Shown here: positions 5,648 through 21,022 of the stretch, one piece after another
Position numbering within the stretch: position 1 is the first letter of the stretch
How the letters are laid out: each line of letters starts with the position of its first letter
Assembly (NCBI RefSeq): GCF_009931435.1
Contig: NZ_CP043414.1
DNA: 64,000 bases
From: Escherichia coli
Lineage (GTDB): Bacteria; Pseudomonadota; Gammaproteobacteria; Enterobacterales; Enterobacteriaceae
Direction: 5' to 3' (one strand)
Translations under genes and position numbers: made by a program
Notes under the pieces: model-generated
Told to the model about the DNA's origin: nothing
Seen by the model: the letters and a program-made list of their open reading frames with translations, nothing else
Database searches by the model: none

Positions 5648-6670
5648 TTAAACCTCTGTAGAGCGGTTTCCGCTGGGTGAGTTATGCCTGTTGAAAAAAT
5701 CAACAATGGCGTGGAGCGCGACTGAGCGCATTGCGTCCTTTTCAAAAAGGATCTCATGGTACGCACCTTTAATTACCAGCGGTCGTCCCCCTTCGACAGG
5801 ATGGCCCGCAGCGGTGCGGAGTTCACAAAAACGGTCGTGCATGCGGTTATCCACCACGCGTTCCTCTTCAGCCTGCAAGAGAAGCGTTGGCGTGGCGTCA
5901 TCACCCGCACCGGCTAACACCTGTTCGCCAGCCAGAATACTTTCGCGTACCCAATGGTAGGTCGGCCCACCGACGCGAATCGTTGGGTCATCAGCATAGA
6001 AGCGTAAGTTACGTCGATATCGCTGTCTGCTGTGGGTCAGTACGTTGATAGCAAACGGCAACGCGCGCCAGCGCCCGGTGCCTATTGCATAGCCATCACG
6101 GAAACGTGGATGTGCTTCGGCCCAGTTAAGGAGCTGCCGCGCCATAAATGACGGCATACGAATCACGATCCCAAACATTGGCGCAGTTAGCGCAATGGCG
6201 TCACATACACCTGGATGGCGTTGCAGAAATAACGTGGAGATCGCACCGCCCATCGAATGTGCCAGTATATAGCGCTTACGCCACGGACCGGGCTGGACCT
6301 CCTGTTGCCAGAATGCCGCCAGATCATCAACATAATCATTAAAGCGATTAACATGCCCAAGATGCGGATCGGCTAACAGGCGACCGGAACGTCCCTGCCC
6401 GCGATGGTCGATGATTAAGACATCAAACCCCAAATGGAACAGGTCGTAGGCCAGTTCCGCATATTTTACGTAGCTCTCAATACGCCCCGGGCAGATGACT
6501 ATCACCCGGTCATGGTGCTGTGCGCGAAAACGGACAAAGCGCACCGGAATGTCATCTACACCAGTAAACTCTGCTTCATCACGCTGACGCCAGAAATCAG
6601 TCAGCGGTCCCATGGTAAAAGCAGCAAACGCGTTTTCTCTTGTTTCCCAGTCTTTTTGCTGCTGAAACAT
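5648..6670 (-). CDS. pldB: lysophospholipase L2
   Basis: 340 aa alpha/beta hydrolase with HSMGG nucleophile elbow; conserved position upstream of yigL. Confidence 0.93.
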   Translation of the reverse strand: MFQQQKDWETRENAFAAFTMGPLTDFWRQRDEAEFTGVDDIPVRFVRFRAQHHDRVIVICPGRIESYVKYAELAYDLFHLGFDVLIIDHRGQGRSGRLLADPHLGHVNRFNDYVDDLAAFWQQEVQPGPWRKRYILAHSMGGAISTLFLQRHPGVCDAIALTAPMFGIVIRMPSFMARQLLNWAEAHPRFRDGYAIGTGRWRALPFAINVLTHSRQRYRRNLRFYADDPTIRVGGPTYHWVRESILAGEQVLAGAGDDATPTLLLQAEEERVVDNRMHDRFCELRTAAGHPVEGGRPLVIKGAYHEILFEKDAMRSVALHAIVDFFNRHNSPSGNRSTEV

Positions 6671-6780
6671 CGGGTAATCTGCCTCTTAAACCACGTAAAA
6701 TCGTTTTTTTAAGCGTGTCTGACACAACGCTGCGACAGTAGCGTATTGTGGCACAAAAATAGACACACCGGGAGTTCATC

Positions 6781-7401
6781 ATGACCTTAGAATGGTGGTT
6801 TGCCTACCTGCTAACATCAATCATTTTAAGCCTGTCGCCAGGCTCTGGTGCAATCAACACCATGACCACCTCGCTCAACCACGGTTATCGTGGTGCGATG
6901 GCGTCTATTGCTGGGCTTCAGACCGGACTGGCGATTCATATTGTGCTGGTTGGTGTGGGGTTGGGTACGCTATTTTCCCGCTCAGTGATTGCGTTTGAAG
7001 TGTTGAAGTGGGCAGGAGCAGCTTATTTGATTTGGCTGGGTATCCAGCAGTGGCGTGCTGCTGGCGCAATTGATCTTAAATCGCTGGCCTCAACCCAATC
7101 GCGCCGACATTTGTTCCAACGCGCAGTGTTTGTGAATCTCACCAATCCCAAAAGTATTGTGTTTCTGGCAGCACTTTTTCCACAATTCATCATGCCGCAA
7201 CAGCCGCAAGTTATGCAGTATGTAGTGCTCGGCGTCACCACCATTGTGGTCGATATTATTGTGATGATCGGTTACGCCACCCTCGCCCAACGGATCGCGT
7301 TATGGATAAAAGGGCCGAAACAGATGAAGGCATTGAATAAGATTTTCGGCTCGTTGTTTATGCTGGTGGGAGCGCTGTTAGCATCGGCGAGACATGCGTG
7401 A
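6781..7401 (+). CDS. rhtB: LysE/RhtB-family homoserine/homoserine lactone exporter
   Basis: 206 aa membrane protein, N-terminus [28 protein letters not shown]. Confidence 0.93.
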
Positions 7402-7408
7402 AAAATAA

Positions 7409-7440
7409 TGTCGGATGCGGCGTAAACGCCTTATCCGACT
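7409..7440. repeat. REP (repetitive extragenic palindrome) unit
   Basis: tgtcggatgcggcgtaaacgccttatccgact between the convergent rhtB and rhtC genes. Confidence 0.6.
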
Positions 7441-7462
7441 TACTCTGATGACGCGTCTGGCA

Positions 7463-8083
7463 TCAACGCGAAATAATCAAATGAATACCAAATCCGGCAA
7501 ATAACGCCCCGGCAAAACCATCAATCCACTTCGCCAGACGTTGATAACCACGGCGCATTTGCGGCAGGGCAAACAGGCTGGCAACGACGGTAAACCACGC
7601 CAGTGTTTCGATAATAATCAACGCGAAAATGCCCCAGCGCTCAGTAGTGCCGACGTTATCGCCGACAAACAGCGAGAATACCGAACCAAAGTAGATAATC
7701 GCTTTCGGATTGGCGAGATTGGTCAGTAAGCCTTTCAGGAAACTGCGCCCGCTTTTTGCCAGTTCTACCTGTGGCGCAGGCGCAGAAACGACCTCTTTTT
7801 TCAGTGCGCTACGCAGCATCTGATAACCCATCCAGCAGAGATACAGGCCACCGCCCACCATAATCAGCGTATGCAGCCAGGCCATTTTTTCGATAATCAA
7901 ATGCAGGCCAAGCAACGCGATCCCTGCCCAGACCATTACGCCGCAGGTAATGCCCAGCACGCCCATCATCGCTTCTTTGCGCGAACGGCTAACGGCAGTC
8001 TGGGAGACAAAAAAGAAATCGGGACCGGGGCTCATAAGCGCCACAATGTGCACCATGGCGACGGTGAGGAATAACATCAACAT
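7463..8083 (-). CDS. rhtC: LysE/RhtB-family threonine exporter
   Basis: 206 aa paralog of RhtB, N-terminus MLMLFLTVAMVHIVALMSPGPDFFFV. Confidence 0.93.
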   Translation of the reverse strand: MLMLFLTVAMVHIVALMSPGPDFFFVSQTAVSRSRKEAMMGVLGITCGVMVWAGIALLGLHLIIEKMAWLHTLIMVGGGLYLCWMGYQMLRSALKKEVVSAPAPQVELAKSGRSFLKGLLTNLANPKAIIYFGSVFSLFVGDNVGTTERWGIFALIIIETLAWFTVVASLFALPQMRRGYQRLAKWIDGFAGALFAGFGIHLIISR

Positions 8084-8146
8084 ACAATTGACTCGCGGGG
8101 AAATCGTTTACGGAGTCTTCATCCTGGCACTTTTTTATGCTGCTGA

Positions 8147-9976
8147 CTACTCTTCGTCATCGCCATCGACATGCGCACGAATCAGCGCCATAAACGGTTT
8201 GCCAAAGCGTTCCAGCTTGCGCATCCCAACGCCGTTAACGCTGAGCATTTCGCTGGCGGTGATTGGCATCTGTTCCGCCATCTCAATCAAGGTCGCGTCG
8301 TTAAACACCACGTACGGCGGGACATTGCTTTCATCGGCAATCGATTTACGCAGTTTGCGTAATTTGGCGAACAGTTTGCGATCGTAATTGCCACCGAACG
8401 ATTTCTGCATCGCTTTCGGTTTGAGCGCCACAATACGCGGCACGGCAAGTTGTAAAGAGGATTCGCCGCGCAACACCGGGCGTGCGGCTTCTGTCAGTTG
8501 TAATGCCGAATGCTGGGCGATGTTTTGCGTCACCAGACCGAGATGAATCAACTGGCGGATTACGCTCACCCAGTGCTCATGACTTTTATCGCGGCCCATG
8601 CCGTAGACTTTCAGTTTGTCATGACCATAGTCGCGGATTCGCTGGTTATTCGCACCGCGAATCACTTCCACTACATAGCCCATACCAAAACGCTGATTCA
8701 CACGACCAATGGTGGAAAGCGCAATCTGCGCATCGGTTGAACCATCGTACTGTTTTGGCGGATCGAGACAGATATCGCAGTTCCCGCACGGCTCCTGCCG
8801 CCCTTCGCCAAAGTAATTCAGCAGCACCAGACGACGACAGGTTTGCGCCTCAGCAAACGCGCCCATCGCATTGAGTTTATGACGTTCGATATCCTGCAAC
8901 TGCCCCTGCGGTTTTTCTTCCAGGCAACGGCGCAGCCACGCCATATCGGCCGGATCGTAAAACAGCATCGCTTCCGCGGGCAGGCCATCACGCCCGGCGC
9001 GACCGGTTTCCTGATAATAGGATTCGATATTGCGTGGAATATCAAAGTGAACCACGAAGCGGACGTTAGGCTTGTTGATGCCCATGCCGAACGCTACCGT
9101 CGCCACCACAATTTGCAGGTCATCGCGCTGGAATTTTTCCTGCACGTCCGCACGGACATCGTTTTCAAGCCCGGCGTGATAAGCCGCTGCGCTGATACCC
9201 TTGCTTTGCAGACGCGCGGCGGTGTCTTCTACTTTCGCACGACTATTACAGTAAATAATCCCCGACTTACCGCGTTGTTCCTGCACGTAGCGCATCAGCT
9301 GATCGAGAGGTTTGAACTTCTCCATCAGCATGTAGCGAATATTCGGACGGTCAAAACTGCTGATTTGAATCAGCGGATCGTTCAGCCCCAGCAGGCGCAC
9401 GATATCCTGCCGCGTGGTGTCGTCGGCGGTGGCAGTCAGCGCCATAAACGGCAGCGTCGGAAAACGCTGACGCAGCTGACCGAGGGCAGCGTATTCCGGG
9501 CGGAAATCGTGGCCCCATTGGGAGATACAGTGCGCTTCATCAACGGCTAATAACACCGGATTCCAGTGCGCCAGATGCTCAAGGAAGTTATCCAGCATCA
9601 GGCGTTCCGGCGCGATATACAGCAGGCGGATTTGCCCGGTGCGGCAGCCTGTCATTACTTCAAGCTGCTGCTCGCGGGTTTGCGTCGAGTTAAGGCACGC
9701 CGCCGCCACGCCGTTGGCCTGTAGCTGATCCACCTGATCTTTCATCAACGAAATCAGTGGTGAAACAACCACGGTAAGACCGTTTAGCAGTAAGGCAGGA
9801 ATTTGATAGCAAAGGGATTTTCCGCCACCAGTGGGCATGACGACCAGGCAATCGCGACCGGAAAGTACGGTGTCGATAATCTCTTCCTGGCCGGGGCGAA
9901 ACTGTTGGTAGCCAAAGGTTTCTTGTAAAACCTGTTTAGCCCCGGACTCCAGATTCAACACTTCCGCCTGCGCCAC
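8147..9976 (-). CDS. recQ: ATP-dependent DNA helicase RecQ
   Basis: 609 aa; Walker [13 protein letters not shown] box ([15 protein letters not shown]), zinc-binding Cys cluster, HRDC C-terminus. Confidence 0.96.
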
Positions 9977-9995
9977 ATTAACCCCGATTGCCTGA

Positions 9996-10026
9996 AATAA
10001 AAACAGGCGCTATTTTCAGCGCCTGC
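9996..10026 (-). terminator. rho-independent terminator downstream of pldA
   Basis: Inverted repeat caggcgct/agcgcctg with 6-nt loop; on the minus strand the stem is followed by a T-run (A-run aaataaaaa on plus strand). Confidence 0.55.
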
Positions 10027-10107
10027 GCGAGAAACTGCAATGCTTTTAGTCTCTGAGAGGGTAATCCTGGATGCTGGATTCCAGTTTTGCCTTTCAATCA
10101 ACTCACA

Positions 10108-10977
10108 TTAGAACAAGTCGTTCAGCATAACCCCCACACCCACACGGGTCTGGTTAAAGTTATAGTCGATGAGCGATTCGCCATAACCGCTGTAAACCTG
10201 GGTATAAAGGCGCACATGCCTGGTGATCGGGTAACTTAAGCCTAACTCCGCACCACCGTAACCGGTGTTCCAGTTGTACTGTCCTTTCGCACTCAGCACC
10301 GCATCACCCAGGTGATAGCCGATTTTAAGCTGGTAGTAACCCATATATTTGGTGATATCTGGGTTATCGTCAGTATTCCCCACCACATACCACGGCTTCA
10401 CCTCTACCAGCCAGTTACCGTTTTCTGCCATCAGACGGGTATAAAGGCGGTTCCAGCTGCGGGAAGTCGGGTCTGAACGCCCGTTAGAGTCGTGGTTATA
10501 ACCCATCTCCACATCGCGCAGCGTCCAGCCAGCAAAGCGGTAATCTGTGGCAAAACCAAGGAACAATTGCGGTTCGTAGTTGGTTTCACGAAACGGTGAA
10601 GACTCTTCGCTATTGGACAGTTGCCACCAGGATTTTTGCGTGTAAGAAGCCCCCAACACCGAATTTGGCCCCAAGATTCCGCGCCACAGCGGAAATGCCA
10701 GGCTCAACTGGAATTTCACTTCATCCTTACGCGCGTTTTCCGCCCAGTCATAACTGGCAATCGCTTCTTTATTCAGATCGCTGGTTTGGGTGTAGATGAG
10801 GTAGTTGGTGTCATAAGGATAGAGCGTGAAAGGATTGTCATGCTCCTGCAGCATATTCGCAATAATACTGCCACGCACCGCAGGCGCGTCATGCACCTCT
10901 TTTACCGTTGCCTCTTGCGCATACACTGCCATTGGCAACATAAACACCGGCAACAACCAGCCCTGCAGAGTCCGCAT
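10108..10977 (-). CDS. pldA: outer membrane phospholipase A
   Basis: 289 aa, signal peptide MRTLQGWLLPVFMLPMAVYA then beta-barrel-like sequence typical of OMPLA. Confidence 0.95.
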   Translation of the reverse strand: MRTLQGWLLPVFMLPMAVYAQEATVKEVHDAPAVRGSIIANMLQEHDNPFTLYPYDTNYLIYTQTSDLNKEAIASYDWAENARKDEVKFQLSLAFPLWRGILGPNSVLGASYTQKSWWQLSNSEESSPFRETNYEPQLFLGFATDYRFAGWTLRDVEMGYNHDSNGRSDPTSRSWNRLYTRLMAENGNWLVEVKPWYVVGNTDDNPDITKYMGYYQLKIGYHLGDAVLSAKGQYNWNTGYGGAELGLSYPITRHVRLYTQVYSGYGESLIDYNFNQTRVGVGVMLNDLF

Positions 10978-11141
10978 CGGTCGTGTTCTCCGTAACGAAT
11001 TATTGATTAGATGAATATTTTTCTGCGGGCTATTTTACATACTTAACTCCTTTGCCGTTAGTTATCCCTTCCTAAAGTAGAAACCAACAAAAAAGAAGCA
11101 TAAAATCAACATTTCATTAACTAATGAAGTGTAAGGATGAT

Positions 11142-11609
11142 ATGTCTGCCGTACTGACCGCTGAACAAGCCCTGAAATTAGTGGGTGAGATGTTTGTTTA
11201 TCACATGCCATTTAACCGCGCATTGGGGATGGAACTGGAGCGTTACGAAAAAGAGTTCGCACAGCTGGCCTTTAAAAATCAGCCAATGATGGTGGGTAAC
11301 TGGGCGCAAAGCATTTTGCACGGCGGGGTCATTGCGTCGGCGCTGGATGTCGCCGCCGGTCTGGTGTGCGTGGGAAGTACCTTAACCCGCCACGAAACCA
11401 TCAGTGAAGATGAACTACGCCAGCGGCTATCGCGAATGGGGACCATTGATCTTCGCGTCGATTATCTGCGCCCAGGCAGGGGTGAGCGTTTTACTGCTAC
11501 CAGTAGTCTGTTGCGTGCGGGCAATAAAGTCGCCGTCGCCCGCGTTGAATTACACAATGAAGAACAGCTTTATATAGCCAGTGCCACCGCCACCTATATG
11601 GTAGGTTGA
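11142..11609 (+). CDS. yigI: PaaI/YigI-family acyl-CoA thioesterase
   Basis: Start trimmed to ATG at 11142 ([18 protein letters not shown]), which has an aaggatga SD upstream; hot-dog fold-like sequence. Confidence 0.85.
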
Positions 11610-11660
11610 TAACGTAAAAGCAGGTAAACTGCTTTTACCCATAAAAAATGAGTTTTGCCA

Positions 11661-12551
11661 ATGGACACCAAACAAACGCGGCAGGGCGTATTACTCGCTC
11701 TTGCCGCTTATTTTATTTGGGGTATTGCGCCAGCGTACTTCAAGCTGATTTACTACGTGCCCGCCGATGAGATCCTGACGCATCGCGTGATCTGGTCGTT
11801 TTTCTTTATGGTGGTGCTGATGAGCATTTGCCGCCAGTGGTCCTATTTAAAAACGCTGATTCAGACACCAAAGAAAATCTTCATGCTGGCCGTCTCTGCC
11901 GTGCTGATTGGTGGCAACTGGCTACTGTTTATCTGGGCGGTGAACAATCACCATATGCTGGAAGCGAGCCTTGGTTACTTTATTAACCCGCTGGTGAACA
12001 TTGTGCTGGGGATGATTTTCCTCGGCGAGCGATTCCGCCGGATGCAATGGCTGGCGGTGATTCTGGCGATATGTGGTGTATTGGTCCAGCTCTGGACTTT
12101 TGGTTCGCTGCCAATCATCGCGCTGGGGCTGGCGTTTAGTTTTGCCTTCTACGGCCTGGTACGCAAGAAAATTGCCGTTGAAGCGCAAACCGGCATGTTA
12201 ATCGAAACCATGTGGCTGCTGCCCGTGGCGGCGATTTACCTGTTTGCTATTGCCGACAGCTCAACCAGCCATATGGGGCAAAACCCGATGTCGCTGAATT
12301 TACTGCTGATCGCCGCCGGTATTGTCACCACCGTGCCACTGTTATGTTTTACCGCAGCAGCTACACGCTTACGACTCTCAACATTAGGCTTTTTCCAGTA
12401 CATTGGGCCGACGCTAATGTTCCTGTTGGCAGTGACGTTTTATGGTGAAAAACCGGGAGCCGATAAGATGGTGACTTTCGCCTTTATTTGGGTAGCGCTG
12501 GCAATTTTTGTGATGGATGCGATTTATACGCAGCGTAGAACGTCCAAATAA
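11661..12551 (+). CDS. rarD: EamA/DMT-family transporter RarD
   Basis: Start trimmed to ATG at 11661 (MDTKQTRQGVLLALAAYFIWG); about 10 predicted TM segments. Confidence 0.9.
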   Translation: MDTKQTRQGVLLALAAYFIWGIAPAYFKLIYYVPADEILTHRVIWSFFFMVVLMSICRQWSYLKTLIQTPKKIFMLAVSAVLIGGNWLLFIWAVNNHHMLEASLGYFINPLVNIVLGMIFLGERFRRMQWLAVILAICGVLVQLWTFGSLPIIALGLAFSFAFYGLVRKKIAVEAQTGMLIETMWLLPVAAIYLFAIADSSTSHMGQNPMSLNLLLIAAGIVTTVPLLCFTAAATRLRLSTLGFFQYIGPTLMFLLAVTFYGEKPGADKMVTFAFIWVALAIFVMDAIYTQRRTSK

Positions 12552-12854
12552 ATATATTCTGAAAAAATATGCCTGCTCTTGCATGAGAGTGGGCATATTG
12601 TCATGCTGACAGGATACTCACATAAGGAAAGGCAGAATTTCCAGACGTCGTTGTATATTTTCATTTGCTTTAATAAATTCCATTTTTGGTAAATTCAGCA
12701 TTATGTTATTAGCGATGAGCAAGACCAATCATTAACCAAGTTCTCTTCAGAATGTAATGAAAAATGTGAAGTGCATTTCTTTTTTAAAAATTTTTTACCC
12801 TATTATTTCTTATCAAATTAACATTGCCCTTAATTATAAGAAAGGAGAATATAA

Positions 12855-13703
12855 ATGAACAACATATTAGGCTCATCAATTAATATGCCCTGTACACTTT
12901 TCGAAACTATTACTTTATTCGATGATTTCTCTGCTGATGATATGCAGTATGGGGATATGGAAGAACAAGATTTTCTCTCACTCGGCTTAAGCGACATCTC
13001 TGCAAAAGTTGATCCTTACCGCCTCATTAAATACCATTTTCCTGGGCCGAATTCTACTTATGGTGCTTTTAGTATTCCAACTTCTGGAACAAAAATATCA
13101 CAAAGTGAATGTATTGATATTTTATTTGCAGAAATGAAAGATCTGGCAAAAATGTTTTCCTTTTTTGGACAATACAAAACACTCATCCAGGATCTGATTG
13201 ATCATTTTAGATATGGAAATGGCAACAGTTTCCATAGCCAGGAATTGAACTTATCTTTTCATGAACGAATAAACAAATATGATTATAATAGCCCAATACG
13301 TGTAATCAAAGAATGTATCGAAAATGATATTTCTTCAACACCTACGATAGGATACCGGCCTCTTCTCCTACAAAAGATTAAGACCGAATTACTTTCATCA
13401 AGACTAAATAAATTCAATGATTTTAAAGATAATTTTAATGGCCTGGGAATCAGCATTCATGATATCTCAGCTCAAAAAATATCTCTTTTAAATTTTCAAA
13501 AATATCCTATGGGCTGGAGCGCTACCATTCATTTCATAGCACAAGACCACTTTGGTTTGGATGTGACTGATATAAAAAACAAGATTTACAACAAGTATAG
13601 ATTTTTTCGCATATGGTTCTTTTTACAACGGCATAAAGACTTTGCTTTCAAACCTTTTTTTACCAATTTTAACACTATCGAAAGAATCGAAAATTATCTA
13701 TGA
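12855..13703 (+). CDS. hypothetical protein (282 aa), accessory; no family recognised
   Basis: Strong SD aaggag 7 nt upstream of ATG; no signal peptide; acidic N-terminal region; AT-rich codon usage (about 35-38 % GC in sampled 60-mers versus about 50 % in flanking core genes); stop overlaps the next gene's ATG (ATGA). Confidence 0.65.
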   Translation: MNNILGSSINMPCTLFETITLFDDFSADDMQYGDMEEQDFLSLGLSDISAKVDPYRLIKYHFPGPNSTYGAFSIPTSGTKISQSECIDILFAEMKDLAKMFSFFGQYKTLIQDLIDHFRYGNGNSFHSQELNLSFHERINKYDYNSPIRVIKECIENDISSTPTIGYRPLLLQKIKTELLSSRLNKFNDFKDNFNGLGISIHDISAQKISLLNFQKYPMGWSATIHFIAQDHFGLDVTDIKNKIYNKYRFFRIWFFLQRHKDFAFKPFFTNFNTIERIENYL

Positions 13704-14197
13704 AAAGCAAACTCCAGAAAATTATATTATATTTATTTCTTCTATGCTGCATCTATAATTTATGGACATTGCGTCCTGTACAGATTTTGTATACATACTC
13801 TGATGCTGGCAATTCAGTCTTTCTGGTCGTTGATCATCTGCCATGGACTGATAGCGATAAAATAAATTGGTATCTGAAGCATCAGGATGAAATTAAAAGT
13901 CAAAATCCCCTACCAGAAGGTAGTTGGCATACCTGGTATGTTATTGATATCGGTAATGGCTTCACTGACTATAAAAAATATATCGAAGGGCCGTATGAAG
14001 ATCTCTACTGTTTCCCGACGATTAAGAGCAATGATAATTGCATCGTAAAAAACTATTTAATGGTTATTAATGAATATCCTTACCGTAATACTCATTTTTT
14101 TATTGCTGATAACAATGAGTATCAACTAACCCAGGAAAATAAGATAGAGCGAGTGTTCAACCCGCATGACTTTGAAAAAGACAATTTTCAGCAATAA
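13700..14197 (+). CDS. hypothetical membrane-anchored protein (165 aa), accessory
   Basis: ATG overlaps upstream stop (translational coupling). N-terminus MKSKLQKIILYLFLLCCIYNLWTL is a basic N-region plus one hydrophobic helix (signal peptide or signal anchor); the rest is a Trp/Tyr-rich soluble domain; AT-rich. Confidence 0.6.
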   Translation: MKSKLQKIILYLFLLCCIYNLWTLRPVQILYTYSDAGNSVFLVVDHLPWTDSDKINWYLKHQDEIKSQNPLPEGSWHTWYVIDIGNGFTDYKKYIEGPYEDLYCFPTIKSNDNCIVKNYLMVINEYPYRNTHFFIADNNEYQLTQENKIERVFNPHDFEKDNFQQ

Positions 14198-14232
14198 GCC
14201 GGATAAAGAACAATCTTTACCCGGCATTTATA

Positions 14233-15183
14233 TTACAACCAGTTCTTCCGCTTAAAGTACAGATACGGTGCCAGGCCCGCGAGGATCATAAAGATAATCG
14301 CGCCTGGGTAGCCGAAGCTCCACTTCAGTTCCGGCATAAACTCAAAGTTCATCCCGTAGCTGGAAGCGACCAGCGTCGGTGGCAGGAACACCACGGATAC
14401 CACCGAGAAGATTTTGATGATGCGGTTCTGCTCGATATTGATAAAGCCCATCGCCGCCTGCATCAGGAAGTTCACCTTCTGGAACAGGGATTCGTTATGC
14501 GGCAGCAGGGATTCGATATCTCGCAGGATTTCACGCGCCTGTTCCAGTTGTCCACCCGGTAAACGCGCTTTACGCACCAGGAAATTGAGCGCACGCTGGG
14601 TATCCATAAGACACAGGCGAACTTTCCAGCCGATATCTTCCAGCTCCGCCAGTGTGGAGAGTGCTTCGTCGTACTCATCGCCCTGATGCCCTTCCATAAT
14701 TACCCGGCTCAACTGCTCCAGGTCGCTGTAGATATTTTCAATTTCATCTGCCAACTGTTCGATTTTGGTTTCGAACAGATCCAGCAGCAGCTCGTAGGCG
14801 TTACCGTCCACCATTGACTGGCTACGGGCACGCATACGATACAGACGAAAAGCGGGTAGCTCGCGCTCACGCAGGGTAAACAGGCGACCGTCGCGGATGG
14901 TAAATGCCACAGTGGAGTTACCGGCGTGATCTTCCGCATCTTCAAAGAAGAAGAAGGAGTGAATATGCAGGCCGTCATCGTCTTCAAAGAAACGCGCCGA
15001 TGCTTCGATGTCTTCCAGTTCTGGGCGTGTTGCCAGGCTCTGCCCAAGTTCAGATTGTACGCGCAGTCGCTCGTCGTCATCCGGTTCGACAAGATCAATC
15101 CATACTGCATTTACAAGGGGTTGTGACTCTTCGACTTCCAGCCGGGTCAGTCGGTTATTTTCCAGTTGAAATGCGCTCAGCAT
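14233..15183 (-). CDS. corA: Mg2+/Co2+ transport protein CorA
   Basis: Start trimmed to ATG at 15183 ([19 protein letters not shown]); C-terminal TM helices with YGMNF signature motif. Confidence 0.95.
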
Positions 15184-15552
15184 GACCGGGACTCCCAATG
15201 CTTAAAATATCGGACAGTTCGGTGGGCACACAGAAACAAATTGGGTTTCAGACCATTAAACAGCCTGACTCAGCGCGACGGGAAAAATTGAGGTCGCTGA
15301 CAACCGCTAAGGCTATCAGCAAAAAGGGATAGCCTTAGGAGTTGATCCTGGATGACAGGATAATGAGCCAGTATCTACTGGGTGTGTCCAAGGCGAATGT
15401 CCTCTTAGAGTGATCGTGCGCGCATGTTACGCCAGCAAAATTTTGCCGTCAACACGCAACAGAACACCACAGAACAATAGTTGAACTTCGCGCTTTTTGG
15501 TACTCGTCAAGGTCGCTAACAGGATAAAAAAATCCCACATCCAGGACCTATA

Positions 15553-16317
15553 ATGGCGCATCGGCTACTCATTGGTAAAGGAATGATCACCTTGAATCTC
15601 AAACGGATTTTTCTCGCCCTCACCTTACTTCCCTTGTTTGCTGTTGCCGCTGATGATTGCGCATTATCAGATCCGACACTGACCGTACAGGCGTATACCG
15701 TTAATCCTCAAACAGAGCGGGTGAAAATGTACTGGCAAAAAGCCAATGGCGAAGCGTGGGAAACGTTACATGCGCTGCTGACGGATATTAATAGTCAGGG
15801 TCAGGTGCAAATGGCGATGAACGGCAGCATATATGATGAAAGCTATGCGCCGCTCGGTTTGTACATCGAAAACGGTCAGCAGAAGGTGGCGTTAAATCTC
15901 GCTTCAGGTGAAGGGAATTTCTTTATCCGTCCTGGCGGTGTGTTTTATGTCGCGGGAGATAAAGTCGGCATCGTTCGTCTGGATGCCTTTAAAACCAGTA
16001 AAGAGATTCAGTTCGCGGTGCAGTCAGGGCCAATGTTGATGGAAAACGGCGTCATTAATCCGCGTATTCATCCCAACGTCGCCTCACGCAAAATTCGTAA
16101 CGGTGTTGGGATTAATAAACAAGGGAACGCCGTGTTTTTGTTGAGCCAGCAGGTGACAAATTTTTATGATTTTGCCTGTTATGCCAAAACGAAACTGAAC
16201 GTTGAGCAACTGCTTTATCTTGATGGCACGATTTCACATATGTATGTGAAAGGCGGGGCAATCCCGTGGCAACGCTATCCTTTTGTTACCATGATTTCCG
16301 TCGAGCAGAAAAGTTAA
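15553..16317 (+). CDS. yigE: secreted hypothetical protein (K-12 YigE-like; DUF2233 from memory)
   Basis: 254 aa with N-terminal signal peptide (LALTLLPLFAVAA); conserved position between corA and uvrD. Confidence 0.85.
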   Translation: MAHRLLIGKGMITLNLKRIFLALTLLPLFAVAADDCALSDPTLTVQAYTVNPQTERVKMYWQKANGEAWETLHALLTDINSQGQVQMAMNGSIYDESYAPLGLYIENGQQKVALNLASGEGNFFIRPGGVFYVAGDKVGIVRLDAFKTSKEIQFAVQSGPMLMENGVINPRIHPNVASRKIRNGVGINKQGNAVFLLSQQVTNFYDFACYAKTKLNVEQLLYLDGTISHMYVKGGAIPWQRYPFVTMISVEQKS

Positions 16318-16351
16318 AACAACCGTTTTGTGTCACTGAATATGGTGCAGA

Positions 16352-16456
16352 TGCCGGATGCGGCGCAAACGCCTTACCCGGCCTACATGACATTGCAATT
16401 TATTGAATCTACATGATTTTGTAGGCCGGATAAGGTGCGCAGCACCGCATCCGGCA
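16352..16456. repeat. BIME (two inverted REP units)
   Basis: gatgccggatgcggcgcaaacgccttacccggcctaca and its inverted partner tgtaggccggataaggtgcgcagcaccgcatccggc between the convergent yigE and uvrD genes. Confidence 0.6.
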
Positions 16457-16459
16457 ACG

Positions 16460-18622
16460 TTATACCGTCTCCAGCCGGGCGTAAGCCGCCACCAGCCATT
16501 TAATACCCTGGCCCTGAAATGCCACCTGCAAACGACTATGTTCGCCGCTGCCTTCCATATTGACGATGGTGCCTTCACCAAACTTGGCGTGGCGTACGCG
16601 CTGGCCGAGCTTGTAGCCGCTGTCGTTCTCGACCATCGGCGTACCCATCCGTTGATGGCTGACCGGGCGGCTTACCGTAGCGCGTAAACGCACCTCTTCC
16701 ACACACTCTTCCGGCAACTCGCCAATAAAACGCGACGGGCGATGGTAAACCTCTTTGCCATACAGACGCCGGGTTTCCGCGTAGGTCAGCGTCAGTTTCT
16801 GCATCGCGCGGGTTACGCCAACGTAGGCCAGACGGCGTTCTTCTTCCAGACGCCCGCCTTCATCCAGCGACATCTGGCTTGGGAACATCCCCTCTTCCAT
16901 ACCGACAATAAACACCTGCGGGAACTCCAGACCTTTCGCCGAGTGCAGCGTCATCAACTGCACCGCGTCCTGCCAGGTGTCCGCCTGTCCTTCACCCGCT
17001 TCCAGCGCGGCATGAGACAGAAACGCCTGTAACGGCATTAAATCTTCGTCTTCTTCGTTGTACGCAAACTGGCGCGTCGCCGTCACCAGTTCGTCTAAGT
17101 TTTCGATTCGCGTCTGGCCTTTTTCGCCCTTCTCTTGCTCGTACATGGTGCGCAGGCCGGAGTCTTTAATTACCCGATCAGTCTGTACATGCAGCGGCAT
17201 ATCGGCAGTTTCTTGCGCTAAGGCGTCGATCAGTTCCATAAACCGTTGCAAAGCGCTGGCAGCACGCCCGGCGAGCGCTTTTTCCTGCAATAATTCGCGG
17301 CACGCCTGCCAGAGTGTTAACTGGCGATCGCGCGATGTCTGACGTACCACGTCCAGCGTCCGGTCACCAATACCCCGCGTTGGCGTATTCACCACGCGCT
17401 CAAAGGCCGCGTCGTCGTTACGGTTGGCAATCAGGCGCAGATACGAGAGCGCATCTTTGATTTCCTGGCGTTCGAAGAAGCGCATCCCGCCATAAATACG
17501 GTACGGCATACTGGCTTGTAATAACGCCTCTTCCAGTACACGCGACTGGGCATTGCTACGATAGAGAATGGCGCACTCGGCGAGCGCCCCGCCGTTGTCC
17601 TGCCAGGTCTTGATGCGGTTAACCACAAAACGCGCTTCGTCGAGTTCGTTAAAAGCGCAATAGAGGGAAATCGGCTCACCGTCCGCGCCATCGGTCCACA
17701 ACTTTTTACCCAAACGCCCGTTGTTGTTTTCAATCAGGGCGTTCGCGGCGCTCAGGATATTGCTGGTAGAGCGGTAGTTCTGCTCCAGACGGATAGTTTC
17801 GGCACCGGGAAAATCATTGAGGAAACGCTGAATGTTCTCGACCTGCGCCCCGCGCCAGCCGTAGATTGACTGGTCGTCATCGCCAACGATCATCACTTTG
17901 CCAGTATCGCCTGCCAGCAGTCGTATCCACGCGTACTGAATGTTGTTGGTATCCTGGAATTCGTCCACCAGGATATTGGTAAAACGTTCGCGGTAGTGTT
18001 GCAGAATATGCGGCTTGTTAAGCCACAACTCGTGAGCGCGCAGCAGCAGCTCGGCGAAGTCCACCAGGCCCGCGCGGTCACACGCTTCCTGATACGCCTG
18101 ATACACCTTCTGCCAGGTCTGCTCCACCGGGTTACCGTAGCTTTGAATATGATGCGGACGCAGCCCTTCATCTTTCTGGCTGTTGATGTACCACATTGCC
18201 TGGCGCGGTGGCCACTGCTTCTCGTCGAGGTTCATAGCTTTGATCAGACGCTTAAGCAGGCGCAGCTGGTCTTCGCTGTCGAGGATCTGGAAATCCTGCG
18301 GCAGGTTGGCGTCCATATGGTGCGCACGCAGCAGACGGTGTGCCAGCCCGTGGAAAGTGCCGACCCACATACCGCCCTGGCTGGTGCCCATCAGTTGCCC
18401 GATACGATGACGCATTTCCGCCGCCGCTTTGTTGGTAAACGTCACCGCCATAATCGAGTACGGCGAGCAGTTTTCCACACTCATCAGCCAGGCGATACGA
18501 TGCACCAGTACGCGCGTCTTACCACTGCCCGCGCCCGCCAGCACCAGAAGGTTGCTGCGTGGCGCGGCCACCGCTTCGCGCTGTTTGTCATTAAGGCTGT
18601 CGAGCAGGTAAGAAACGTCCAT
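16460..18622 (-). CDS. uvrD: DNA helicase II (UvrD)
   Basis: Start trimmed to the ATG giving MDVSYLLDSLNDKQREAVAAP (720 aa); the longer 782 aa ORF starts from a TTG inside yigB. Walker A AGAGSGKT, UvrD/Rep helicase motifs. Start coordinate has +/-1 uncertainty from hand indexing. Confidence 0.95.
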   Translation of the reverse strand: MDVSYLLDSLNDKQREAVAAPRSNLLVLAGAGSGKTRVLVHRIAWLMSVENCSPYSIMAVTFTNKAAAEMRHRIGQLMGTSQGGMWVGTFHGLAHRLLRAHHMDANLPQDFQILDSEDQLRLLKRLIKAMNLDEKQWPPRQAMWYINSQKDEGLRPHHIQSYGNPVEQTWQKVYQAYQEACDRAGLVDFAELLLRAHELWLNKPHILQHYRERFTNILVDEFQDTNNIQYAWIRLLAGDTGKVMIVGDDDQSIYGWRGAQVENIQRFLNDFPGAETIRLEQNYRSTSNILSAANALIENNNGRLGKKLWTDGADGEPISLYCAFNELDEARFVVNRIKTWQDNGGALAECAILYRSNAQSRVLEEALLQASMPYRIYGGMRFFERQEIKDALSYLRLIANRNDDAAFERVVNTPTRGIGDRTLDVVRQTSRDRQLTLWQACRELLQEKALAGRAASALQRFMELIDALAQETADMPLHVQTDRVIKDSGLRTMYEQEKGEKGQTRIENLDELVTATRQFAYNEEDEDLMPLQAFLSHAALEAGEGQADTWQDAVQLMTLHSAKGLEFPQVFIVGMEEGMFPSQMSLDEGGRLEEERRLAYVGVTRAMQKLTLTYAETRRLYGKEVYHRPSRFIGELPEECVEEVRLRATVSRPVSHQRMGTPMVENDSGYKLGQRVRHAKFGEGTIVNMEGSGEHSRLQVAFQGQGIKWLVAAYARLETV

Positions 18623-18680
18623 TGGCACCGCCGCGTAAAAATAGGTTGGGCGGAGAAGCGCAACGCCCTCCGCCAAAAAG

Positions 18681-18696
18681 CTGGGTATATATACAG
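18681..18696 (-). promoter_or_regulatory. LexA (SOS) box of the uvrD promoter
   Basis: Minus strand reads CTGTATATATACCCAG, a CTGT-N8-ACAG-type SOS box, about 60 bp upstream of the uvrD start and inside the yigB 3' coding end. Confidence 0.5.
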
Positions 18697-18705
18697 ATTT
18701 GCTGA

Positions 18706-19422
18706 TTATATCAGCGAGGTCAGAGATGCCAACCGGGAAATTTCCAGATGCGGCAGTAAACGGCTGTCCCAGGTTTGCATCAGATCGCCATTTTCCGGTC
18801 TGATCCAACAGGCCTGCATTCCGCTGCGAATTGCCCCACCCACGTCAGTGGTGAGATCGTCCCCGACATGTAAGATCTCGCCGATCGGCACGTTGAGTTT
18901 TTCCGCCGCCAGGAAGTACATATCGCTGAACGGTTTTGAGCGCCCGTGCGGGCCAGCGCGCAACACAAACTCAAAATAATCCCCCAAACCAAACAGCTCC
19001 GGCTGGGCGTTACCGTTGGTGATCGCCACCAGCGGCCATTTCTTCGCCAGCTGTTTTAAGGTGTCGTGCGTTTGCTGCGGAACGTCGATCCGGCTACGCC
19101 ATTTGGCAAAGTTGATCATTGCCGCGTGTGCGCCTGCACTGGCTTCTTCTGCGCTCAGCCCGGCGTCGAGCATCGCTTGTTCTATTGAGCGAAAACGCCA
19201 GCGCGTCACATCATGATAAATCTCGGGTTCCGCTTCCCGTACCGCCTGACGCAGACGTTGCAGATCTTCATTCTGGAAGCTGCGCAGCGCCGGATGGTAA
19301 TTTTGCACAAAGGTAAGCGCCTCCTGCTCAGTGCGCAAAATCACCGGACGGTTATCGTAAAGGGTATCATCCAGGTCAAAGGTGAGCGCCGAGATGCGCC
19401 CCAAAGGCCGGTAAAAACGCAT
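18706..19422 (-). CDS. yigB: HAD-family FMN/5-amino-6-(5-phospho-D-ribitylamino)uracil phosphatase
   Basis: 238 aa, HAD motif [12 protein letters not shown] near the N-terminus; stop verified at 18706. Confidence 0.9.
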
Positions 19423-20318
19423 TATTTCCCCCGTTTGGCGCGTGGATGCGCCGCATCGTACACCGAGGCAAGGTGTTGAAAATCAAGATGAGTATAGATT
19501 TGCGTGGTAGAGAGATTGGCATGACCCAGCAGCTCCTGCACACCACGAAGATCACCGCTCGACTCCAGCATATGCGTAGCGAACGAGTGACGTAATTTAT
19601 GCGGGTGAACGTGATTATTCAGCCCTTGTTTTATGCCCCATTCGGCAAAGCGTTTCTGCACATTACGCGCGGAGATACGCTTGCCCAGTTTCGACAGAAA
19701 AAGCGCGTCGTCTTCGCTGCCAAACAGGTCGCGCAAATCAAGCCAGTGCTCAATCCACGCTACAGCGTTGCGACCAATCGGCAGGCGACGCTCTTTGCTG
19801 CCTTTCCCCATCACCCACACTTCACCGGACTCCAGGTCGAGGTGTTTGATATCGAGCCCCACCAGTTCGGAAAGACGCAGACCCGCGCCGTACATCACTT
19901 CCAGCATTGCCCGATCGCGCACGGCAAGGGGATCGTTGATATCAATATCCAGCAGCCGATTTATATCATCGACGTCGATATTTTTCGGCAGATGACGCGG
20001 CGCTTTCGGTGCCGAAACACCTTTCGCCGGGTTGGCTTTAAGTTCGTTCTGGCTGACCAACCAGTCAAAAAAGCTACGTAGCGCAGAGAGGCGTAATGCG
20101 AGGCTTGCCGCGCCCAGCCCTTTACGGCGACTGCGTACAGCGAAATTGCGCACCATCGCCGCATCACATTGCTGCCAGCTTTGCAGGCCGTTTTCGCTGG
20201 CAAAATTGATGATCGCCTCAAGTTGGCGCTGGTAGTTAAGCAGGGTTATCGGGCTAAGCTGACGCTCCACGCTCAGATAACGTAGGTAGCGTTCTACATC
20301 GGTGTGTAAATCGGTCAT
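19422..20318 (-). CDS. xerC: tyrosine site-specific recombinase XerC (chromosome dimer resolution)
   Basis: 298 aa; catalytic R..HxxR..Y residues near the C-terminus ([10 protein letters not shown] ... TQIYTHL); sits in the dapF-yigA-xerC-yigB operon with short gene overlaps. Confidence 0.95.
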
Positions 20319-21022
20319 ACGCGTTCAATCCAACGCTCCAGAAGCTCCGGCAACATCAGCGCAATTTCATGAAGTAACTCCGTTCCCTGCCCTTGTTGAT
20401 AGTGACTGGCATCGCGGCTGGTGAACAGCACGACACCCAAATCAGCATCGCTTCCCAGCATCGACATCGCCACCGATCCCACCGCTTTCGCTTCCGGTAG
20501 CACCACCAGCAGCTCCGGTCCGTTAAGCGGCCCAAGATAGTGCTGTTCCTGCCCCAGACGCTGAATACGCAGCGGTTCGAAAGACTGACGGCTTAATGCG
20601 AGATGAGTGTGGTTCGACGGCGCACCTAAGCGCCAGCGATCCGGAAACAGGCGCAGACTCGCACCTGCCAGACCGAGATCGCGCGCCCAGCGGTGAAAAC
20701 GCATCAGCATATCGTCGAGACTGCTGGCGGCGGTGAGACTACGCTGCAGGTAAAGTAAGCGATAGAACAAGCCTTCGTTGGCGATAGCCTGTTCCATCAA
20801 CAGCGCCATGTTCTCTTCCAGAACATGAATATGATGACGTGCGCGGGCCATGTGCCACTCGACCAACGAAACGGTGCCGCGTACCGGATGCGGCACACGT
20901 ATCGCTTCTACTGCGCGCGCATTGCGGATAAAAAACTCAGGATTTTTAATCAGATAATCGACAACCGCCCGGTCATCTAGCTCCGTGAGTGTTTCCTGTA
21001 GTTCTTCCCCTGGTTGCTTCAT
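20315..21022 (-). CDS. yigA: DUF484-family protein YigA
   Basis: 235 aa; 4-nt overlaps with dapF upstream and xerC downstream. Confidence 0.88.

Follow-up and report, generated by a model that had tools for sequence, protein, structure and literature searches.

The subject of this analysis is a two-gene module between rarD and corA in a 64,000-nucleotide stretch of Escherichia coli DNA (contig NZ_CP043414.1 of assembly GCF_009931435.1; the whole stretch is called the window here). The two genes, named A and B, are best read as a chromosomal orphan type VI secretion system (T6SS) effector–immunity pair of the DUF3289/DUF943 kind, with a probability of roughly 0.78. A preliminary description of the window had already offered an orphan, periplasm-acting T6SS effector with an exported immunity protein as one candidate, and this candidate fits both the family membership of the two proteins and the literature on their relatives. 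The same description had recognized neither family and proposed an undescribed system, which did not hold up. A is a DUF3289/TIGR03034 protein, B is a DUF943 protein, a crystal structure of a homologous complex is available (PDB 9JDI), and T6SS effector–immunity pairs of this type were described in 2024–2025 (PMC11148199, PMC12135965). Among the 11 papers mentioning DUF3289 and the 5 mentioning DUF943, none was found on the E. coli rarD-corA pair.

Gene A encodes a protein of 33 kDa that matches TIGR03034 (the "YPO3983 family") with 396.3 bits, against a curated cutoff of 156.45, over profile positions 1–274 of 274. It also matches Pfam DUF3289 (PF11692) with an E-value of 8.3e-83 over model positions 2–270 of 272. 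In RefSeq genomes, the proteins at this locus are named "YPO3983 family protein" and "DUF943 family protein". Neither a hydrophobic segment nor an export signal is present in A, in agreement with the earlier characterization of this protein as cytoplasmic-looking. An alignment of 41 diverse DUF3289 relatives was built and used both for conservation and for an AlphaFold2 model of A. Nine residues are invariant across the 41 members and all are kept in A (H232, F233, G234, D239, W254, L257, Q258, P267 and F268), while D231 and D236 are nearly invariant. In A, these residues form the motif D231-H-F-G-L-D236-x-x-D239, followed by W254, L257, Q258, P267 and F268. This conserved C-terminal motif (DHFGLDxxD ... 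W..LQ ... PF) is present in 40 of the 41 members, in both E. coli allele classes described below, and in BtpeA (Bfe5), a toxin of Bacteroides fragilis.

The C-terminal domain (CTD) of BtpeA has been solved in complex with its partner BtpiA (PDB 9JDI and 9JG8; Li et al., Cell Host Microbe 2025, pmid 41072405), and the depositors of 9JDI label the DUF3289 chain as effector and the partner as immunity protein. The AlphaFold2 model of A (pLDDT 89.6) has the same fold as the BtpeA CTD in 9JDI. When the PDB was searched with the DUF3289 family profile, BtpeA was the only match, and 9jdi_A was found with an E-value of 3.5e-30 and with the DHFGLDxxD...FRxWFxLQ...KPF motif aligned.

Gene B is located directly downstream of the DUF3289 gene on the same strand, an arrangement also found in Salmonella, Enterobacter and Klebsiella loci. 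Its product matches Pfam DUF943 (PF06092) with an E-value of 3e-27 over residues 3–152 (model positions 2–150 of 151). The protein has a single N-terminal hydrophobic helix with the hydropathy maximum at residues 8–26. A model of B, made separately from that of A (pLDDT 87.2), places a helix at residues 2–24, followed by an alpha/beta domain, and the single N-terminal signal anchor reported earlier was thus found again. The lysines K2, K4 and K7 on the N-terminal side of the helix suggest an N-in, C-out topology. B is therefore predicted to consist of an inner-membrane anchor (residues ~2–24) and a periplasmic alpha/beta domain. No sequence-level link of B to BtpiA or to Cmi, the colicin M immunity protein, was found, and B is linked to BtpiA by predicted fold alone. 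Two independent predicted models, each matching one protein of one solved effector–immunity complex, are the strongest new evidence for the proposed reading.

The wider family points in the same direction. In a library of 1.84 billion proteins, 476 relatives of A were found at E-values up to 0.001, many of which are 400–1300 aa long and carry the domain at the C-terminus. In the protein P0170, a PAAR_motif domain is present at residues 10–75 and DUF3289 at residues 130–399, and the order at a Klebsiella pneumoniae locus is PAAR, PAAR-DUF3289, DUF943. Other fusion partners of DUF3289 are a SleB-like peptidoglycan hydrolase, SH3-like wall-binding segments and DNRLRE domains. Fusions to PAAR, wall enzymes and wall-binding modules indicate the architecture of a polymorphic toxin domain directed at the cell envelope. 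In an Enterobacter sp. (Logan SRR11948719, locus L012, 4499–7319), two tandem DUF3289-DUF943 pairs were observed at an unrelated chromosomal site, the first toxin gene being shortened to 225 aa; tandem arrays of this kind are typical of toxin–immunity loci.

Relatives of both proteins have been studied in other bacteria. In Yersinia pseudotuberculosis, a T6SS operon includes the gene for a PAAR-DUF3289 protein (Mol Syst Biol 2024, PMC11148199). The toxicity of this protein to E. coli depends on its export to the periplasm, where it causes the cells to round up, and it is neutralized by its DUF943 neighbor (PMC11148199). Based on a Foldseek match, the same authors propose a colicin M-like, cell-wall-directed activity (PMC11148199). 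In Aeromonas jandaei, a stand-alone orphan DUF3289 protein (WP_042032936.1) has been detected in the T6SS-dependent secretome (PLoS Biol 2025, PMC12135965), and together with its immunity partner it behaves as a genuine effector–immunity pair in competition assays (PMC12135965). This case indicates that a bare DUF3289 protein can be genuine T6SS cargo. Linkage of DUF3289 and DUF943 genes has been noted in Klebsiella as well (PMC12469244), and DUF3289 is among the listed toxin domains of PIX-class orphan effectors.

By analogy with these relatives, a working model can be proposed. In a cell with a working T6SS, A would probably be loaded on the T6SS spike (VgrG/PAAR) and fired into neighboring Gram-negative cells, where it would act on the envelope from the periplasm. 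The rounding caused by the Yersinia relative would agree with damage to the cell wall or to the lipid-linked precursor from which it is made. The periplasmic domain of B would probably bind and block the toxin as it arrives, on the periplasmic side of the inner membrane, and B would in this way shield the producer and its kin. That A is toxic, that B rescues and that a T6SS delivers the toxin are in each case expected by analogy with the relatives.

The module and its borders are as follows (window coordinates).

11655–12551: rarD, left neighbor of the gene pair.
12552–12688: left border DNA common to K-12-type loci by blastn against locus L003, consisting of the rarD downstream region (12552–12628) and a 52-bp yigG remnant (12637–12688).
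12689–12854, + strand: AT-rich upstream region proper to the module, with a Shine-Dalgarno sequence AAGGAG at 12842–12847, 7 nt before the ATG of gene A.
12855–13703, + strand: gene A, stand-alone DUF3289/YPO3983-family protein, predicted toxin, 282 aa, ATG start.
13700–14197, + strand: gene B, DUF943 protein, predicted immunity protein, 165 aa.
14198–14225: GC-rich hairpin separating the stop codons of the convergent genes B and corA, found by a terminator scan (12-pair stem, 6 GC pairs).
14233–15198, - strand: corA, right neighbor, convergent with gene B.

The pair is flanked by pldA, yigI and rarD on one side and by corA, yigE and uvrD on the other. Both open reading frames are present as first described, including the ATGA at which the ATG of gene B overlaps the TGA of gene A, and this overlap indicates that B is probably translationally coupled to A. 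The hairpin at 14198–14225 is probably a two-way terminator. A promoter scan upstream of A gave sites that were no more common than in shuffled sequence, and no promoter is therefore claimed. No RNA family matched in the window. The island of low GC reported in the preliminary description is real, although the quoted 35–38% was slightly high: the GC content of 12552–14232 is 33.0%, the lowest among all 1681-bp windows in the 64 kb (mean 51.9%, standard deviation 3.6) and about 5 standard deviations below the mean. The GC content at third codon positions is 0.29 for A and 0.36 for B, compared to 0.55–0.67 for pldA, yigI, rarD, corA and uvrD. On the far side of corA, RefSeq genomes annotate a 19-codon leader open reading frame (ysgD/corL family) upstream of corA, at a position corresponding to window ~15350–15410 (- strand).

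Comparison of the rarD-corA interval across genomes gave two alternatives, the DUF3289-DUF943 pair or yigG-yigF. As stated in the preliminary description, the K-12-type locus carries yigG and yigF, of 126 aa each, in this slot. By blastn against the K-12-type locus L003, window positions 12300–12628 correspond to L003 1901–2236, and 12637–12688 correspond to L003 2283–2334, which lies inside yigG (L003 2247–2627). The segment that differs from the K-12-type locus is 12689–14232, its right junction lying exactly at the corA stop codon, and homology to the O55:H7-type module begins at window position 12688. The 5' yigG remnant indicates that the haplotype of the window descends from one that carried yigG, in which a replacement took place whose left junction falls within this gene.

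Population counts were made in complete E. coli genomes (n = 5426). The A-B pair was matched in 2647 of these (49%) and the yigG-yigF segment in 2462 (~45%). The pair is chromosomal in every E. coli carrier and is present in a single copy per genome, with one exception. The same rarD-corA slot is occupied by DUF3289-DUF943, with ~63% protein identity, in Salmonella enterica subsp. houtenae and in non-enterica lineages related to it, indicating that the pair is an old resident rather than recent foreign cargo. The earlier notion of a strain-variable hotspot with replaced cargo therefore stands with regard to the two-state slot and the replacement of yigG-yigF, but not with regard to a recent, strain-specific foreign origin. 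An origin of this locus from a plasmid or mobile element was also considered and rejected, since no plasmid places were matched in E. coli and neither flanking direct repeats nor att-like sites were found in the window.

Two allele classes are present in E. coli. The class of the window is matched at 95–100% identity in ~930 genomes, and a class found in O157:H7, O55:H7 and O145 is matched at ~89.5% identity in ~1600 genomes. Between the classes, protein identity is 85% for A and 91–93% for B. The dN/dS values between the classes are 0.175 for A and 0.197 for B, compared to 0.03 for rarD and 0 for corA, indicating that both genes are under purifying selection that is looser than on core genes. 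A natural recombinant (strain JMK_KBN3987, locus L006, 5001–6337) combines a class-1 A (98.6% amino acid identity to the window class) with a class-2 B that is identical to the O55:H7-type protein, which suggests that B protects across both allele classes. The pair is 99–100% identical in genomes with flanks differing by 4–8%. In isolate 3702594, the pair is 99–100% identical to that of the window and the flanks drop to 92–96%, indicating that distant lineages have recently exchanged the pair through recombination.

The O55:H7-type haplotype has further features of its own. Between rarD and a corA fragment, it carries ~1 kb of additional AT-rich DNA, and this extra left segment was matched in 1464 of the 5426 genomes. 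It includes a 99-aa open reading frame (L002 2196–2495, - strand) that had no NCBIfam match and belongs to no known family. Just upstream of the toxin gene, this haplotype also contains a 147-bp direct duplicate of the corA 3' end (L002 3122–3268, L004 2838–2984), which is 94.6% identical to the real corA end of the same genome, is annotated as a corA pseudogene and has no equivalent in the window. This duplicate looks like the scar of a single-crossover insertion.

The core genes near the pair (recQ, pldA, rarD, corA and uvrD; window 6400–20400 compared with loci L001–L006) show ~92–97% identity to mainstream E. coli, and the same genes are 98.6% identical to those of strain 2020CK-00188. A 2-kb query was matched at 99% or higher in just 4 of the 5426 genomes. 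The low core-gene identity and the few close matches place the window in an Escherichia lineage that is rare and divergent and has a mosaic identity pattern. A second presence/absence polymorphism is located 2 kb away from the A-B slot, in the yigE-uvrD gap (window 16318–16434). This gap is just 117 bp long in the window and in strain 2020CK-00188, and in loci L002, L003, L005 and L006 it contains a ~0.9-kb gene of the SAM hydroxide adenosyltransferase/SAM hydrolase family, which is frequent in E. coli.

Co-occurrence with type VI secretion was examined by concatenating the pair and tssC in single queries and using union counts, with tssC taken from the aspV-type T6SS-2 of O157:H7 Sakai and from the metV-type T6SS-1 of CFT073. 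The T6SS-2 tssC was found in 2263 genomes and the pair or this tssC in 3312; either tssC was found in 3428 genomes and the pair or either tssC in 3952. A tssC of one of the two types is thus present in 2123 of 2647 carriers (80.2%) and in 1305 of 2779 non-carriers (47.0%), with an odds ratio of 4.6 that is uncorrected for phylogeny. For the T6SS-2 tssC alone, the values are 60.4% of carriers and 23.9% of non-carriers. The enrichment of tssC in carriers fits T6SS cargo, although the presence of tssC is no proof of a working system.

Several observations weigh against reading A and B as a T6SS effector–immunity pair. The association with tssC has that lack of phylogenetic correction, 524 of the 2647 carriers (20%) have neither tssC type, and no T6SS gene was found in the 64-kb window or adjoining the pair at any locus examined. 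The results on toxicity, rescue and delivery come from relatives and not from the E. coli proteins. A single genome with a 100% identical pair was examined, that of strain 2020CK-00188. Its aspV T6SS has a frameshifted tssM and a truncated tagH and is without tssB, tssC, tssE, tssF, tssG and vgrG, and its metV T6SS site is empty. This decay in a genome with an identical pair makes delivery in this lineage doubtful. If the genome of the window resembles 2020CK-00188, the toxin could not be fired and just the immunity function would be in use. A 2021 preprint also gave the reverse roles, with DUF943 as the toxic protein and DUF3289 as a harmless adaptor (10.1101/2021.10.07.463556). As separate observations on strain 2020CK-00188, the aspV island (L009) holds a half-deleted T6SS and ends in an Rhs fragment. 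The strain (L008, L009 and L014) also carries a complete-looking Flag-2 lateral flagella cluster near this island and an ETT2 type III secretion cluster with two pseudogenes.

In this lineage, the pair may be without a working T6SS and the immunity half alone may be in use. A possible, though doubtful, extension of this view is that in this lineage and in the ~20% of carriers without a sheath gene, B is kept against the DUF3289 toxins of T6SS-armed relatives, with A as a passenger or kept for another reason. The decayed aspV T6SS and empty metV site in the genome with the identical pair, the 524 carriers with neither tssC type, and the recombinant, which suggests cross-allele protection by B, all favor such an explanation. 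However, retention for immunity does not require that A is intact, 100% identical in 2020CK-00188 and under purifying selection (dN/dS 0.175), and a sheath gene is present in 80% of the carriers. Moreover, the sheath-less carriers could have a third type of T6SS or could have lost theirs very recently. An exchange of the two roles, in which B is a membrane-damaging toxin and A an adaptor or chaperone, is much less credible. It goes back to the finding that E. coli was poisoned by over-expression of a DUF943 protein from Aeromonas and that the adjoining DUF3289 protein was non-toxic in the cytoplasm (10.1101/2021.10.07.463556). The same group has since revised this assignment, reporting that periplasmic DUF3289 is toxic and that DUF943 rescues (PMC11148199). 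The labels given by the 9JDI depositors also contradict an exchange of roles, and it is DUF3289 that occurs in fusions with PAAR and with cell-wall enzymes. Non-specific toxicity is common when membrane proteins are over-expressed, which also counts against a toxic role for B.

It is similarly improbable that A acts as a colicin M-like bacteriocin, set free when cells lyse and taken up via an outer-membrane receptor and TonB independently of a T6SS, with B as the equivalent of Cmi. A weak fold similarity to colicin M exists in the C-terminal half of A, and A has neither a TonB-box nor receptor-binding domains. Membership of A in the colicin M family was examined separately and rejected. The ColM sequence used was verified against 2XMX (270 of 271 residues). 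An hhalign comparison of the DUF3289 family alignment with ColM gave a probability of 0.3%, the Pfam colicin M family did not match A, and DxYDx5HR, the catalytic motif of ColM, occurs neither in A nor in any of the 41 aligned DUF3289 members. With no profile similarity and no catalytic motif, A was not filed as a colicin M member. Cleavage of lipid II or another undecaprenyl-linked precursor by A, in a colicin M-like manner, is weakly suggested by analogy, from the published rounding phenotype and the weak fold resemblance.

A toxin–antitoxin pair acting inside the producing cell or an anti-phage module, both of which had been proposed initially, found no support and is the most improbable explanation. 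A small, AT-rich two-gene cassette in a variable slot would suit such a system. Nevertheless, neither protein matches any PADLOC family at E-values up to 1, the bulk of B is predicted to lie outside the cytoplasm, and both proteins have a specific and better explanation. The family is essentially absent from phage records: the only two matching records in the phage collection are Salmonella houtenae genome contigs and not phages. True plasmid matches are few; eight records of the plasmid collection were matched, comprising Pantoea and Photobacterium (mega)plasmids and records of 1.0, 4.8 and 5.4 Mb, the latter three being evidently chromosomes filed as plasmids.

As an orphan T6SS effector–immunity pair, A and B would probably be among the most widespread T6SS toxin–immunity pairs in E. 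coli. The pair is present in O157:H7 strains, and Nissle 1917 is probably a carrier, judging by the count of matched places. Correct naming of the pair aids the reading of strain-versus-strain competition in the gut. The E. coli pair reveals no new mechanism; what deserves attention is the near 50/50 polymorphism shared with Salmonella, the exchange between lineages and the persistence without a T6SS. If an intact pair is indeed maintained in lineages that lack a T6SS, its upkeep would be due either to immunity alone or to some use of the toxin that does not involve a T6SS. It is conceivable, although rather unlikely, that the slot is an old balanced two-state polymorphism, possibly common to E. 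coli and Salmonella and maintained through frequency-dependent killing and immunity. The clean two-state locus, the two allele classes and the recombinants together offer a convenient natural setting in which to follow the retention or loss of such weapons and shields.

Compared with known systems, the E. coli pair resembles Yersinia T6EC1/T6IC1 in its make-up: both consist of a DUF3289 gene and, immediately after it, a DUF943 immunity gene. In each pair, the toxin lacks a signal peptide, and the immunity protein combines a single N-terminal anchor with a body in the periplasm. The difference is that E. coli A is a bare DUF3289 domain at an orphan site far from T6SS genes. In this respect it is similar to the Aeromonas jandaei effector, also a DUF3289 protein that stands alone, with a gene located outside the T6SS clusters and an immunity gene downstream of it. 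The immunity protein of that effector differs: it is 95 aa long, carries a signal peptide as well as three membrane helices, and is not a DUF943 protein. Compared to BtpeA-BtpiA, identity is just 20% for A and 11% for B, and BtpeA itself is a protein of 608 aa with a C-terminal toxin domain, which a Bacteroidota T6SS delivers with the help of a dedicated adaptor (PMC13402684). With the lipid II-cleaving colicin M family (ColM, PaeM, pectocins and syringacin M), the pair would share action from the periplasm and a membrane-anchored, periplasmic immunity protein, while the delivery route is different and no sequence or profile similarity is present.

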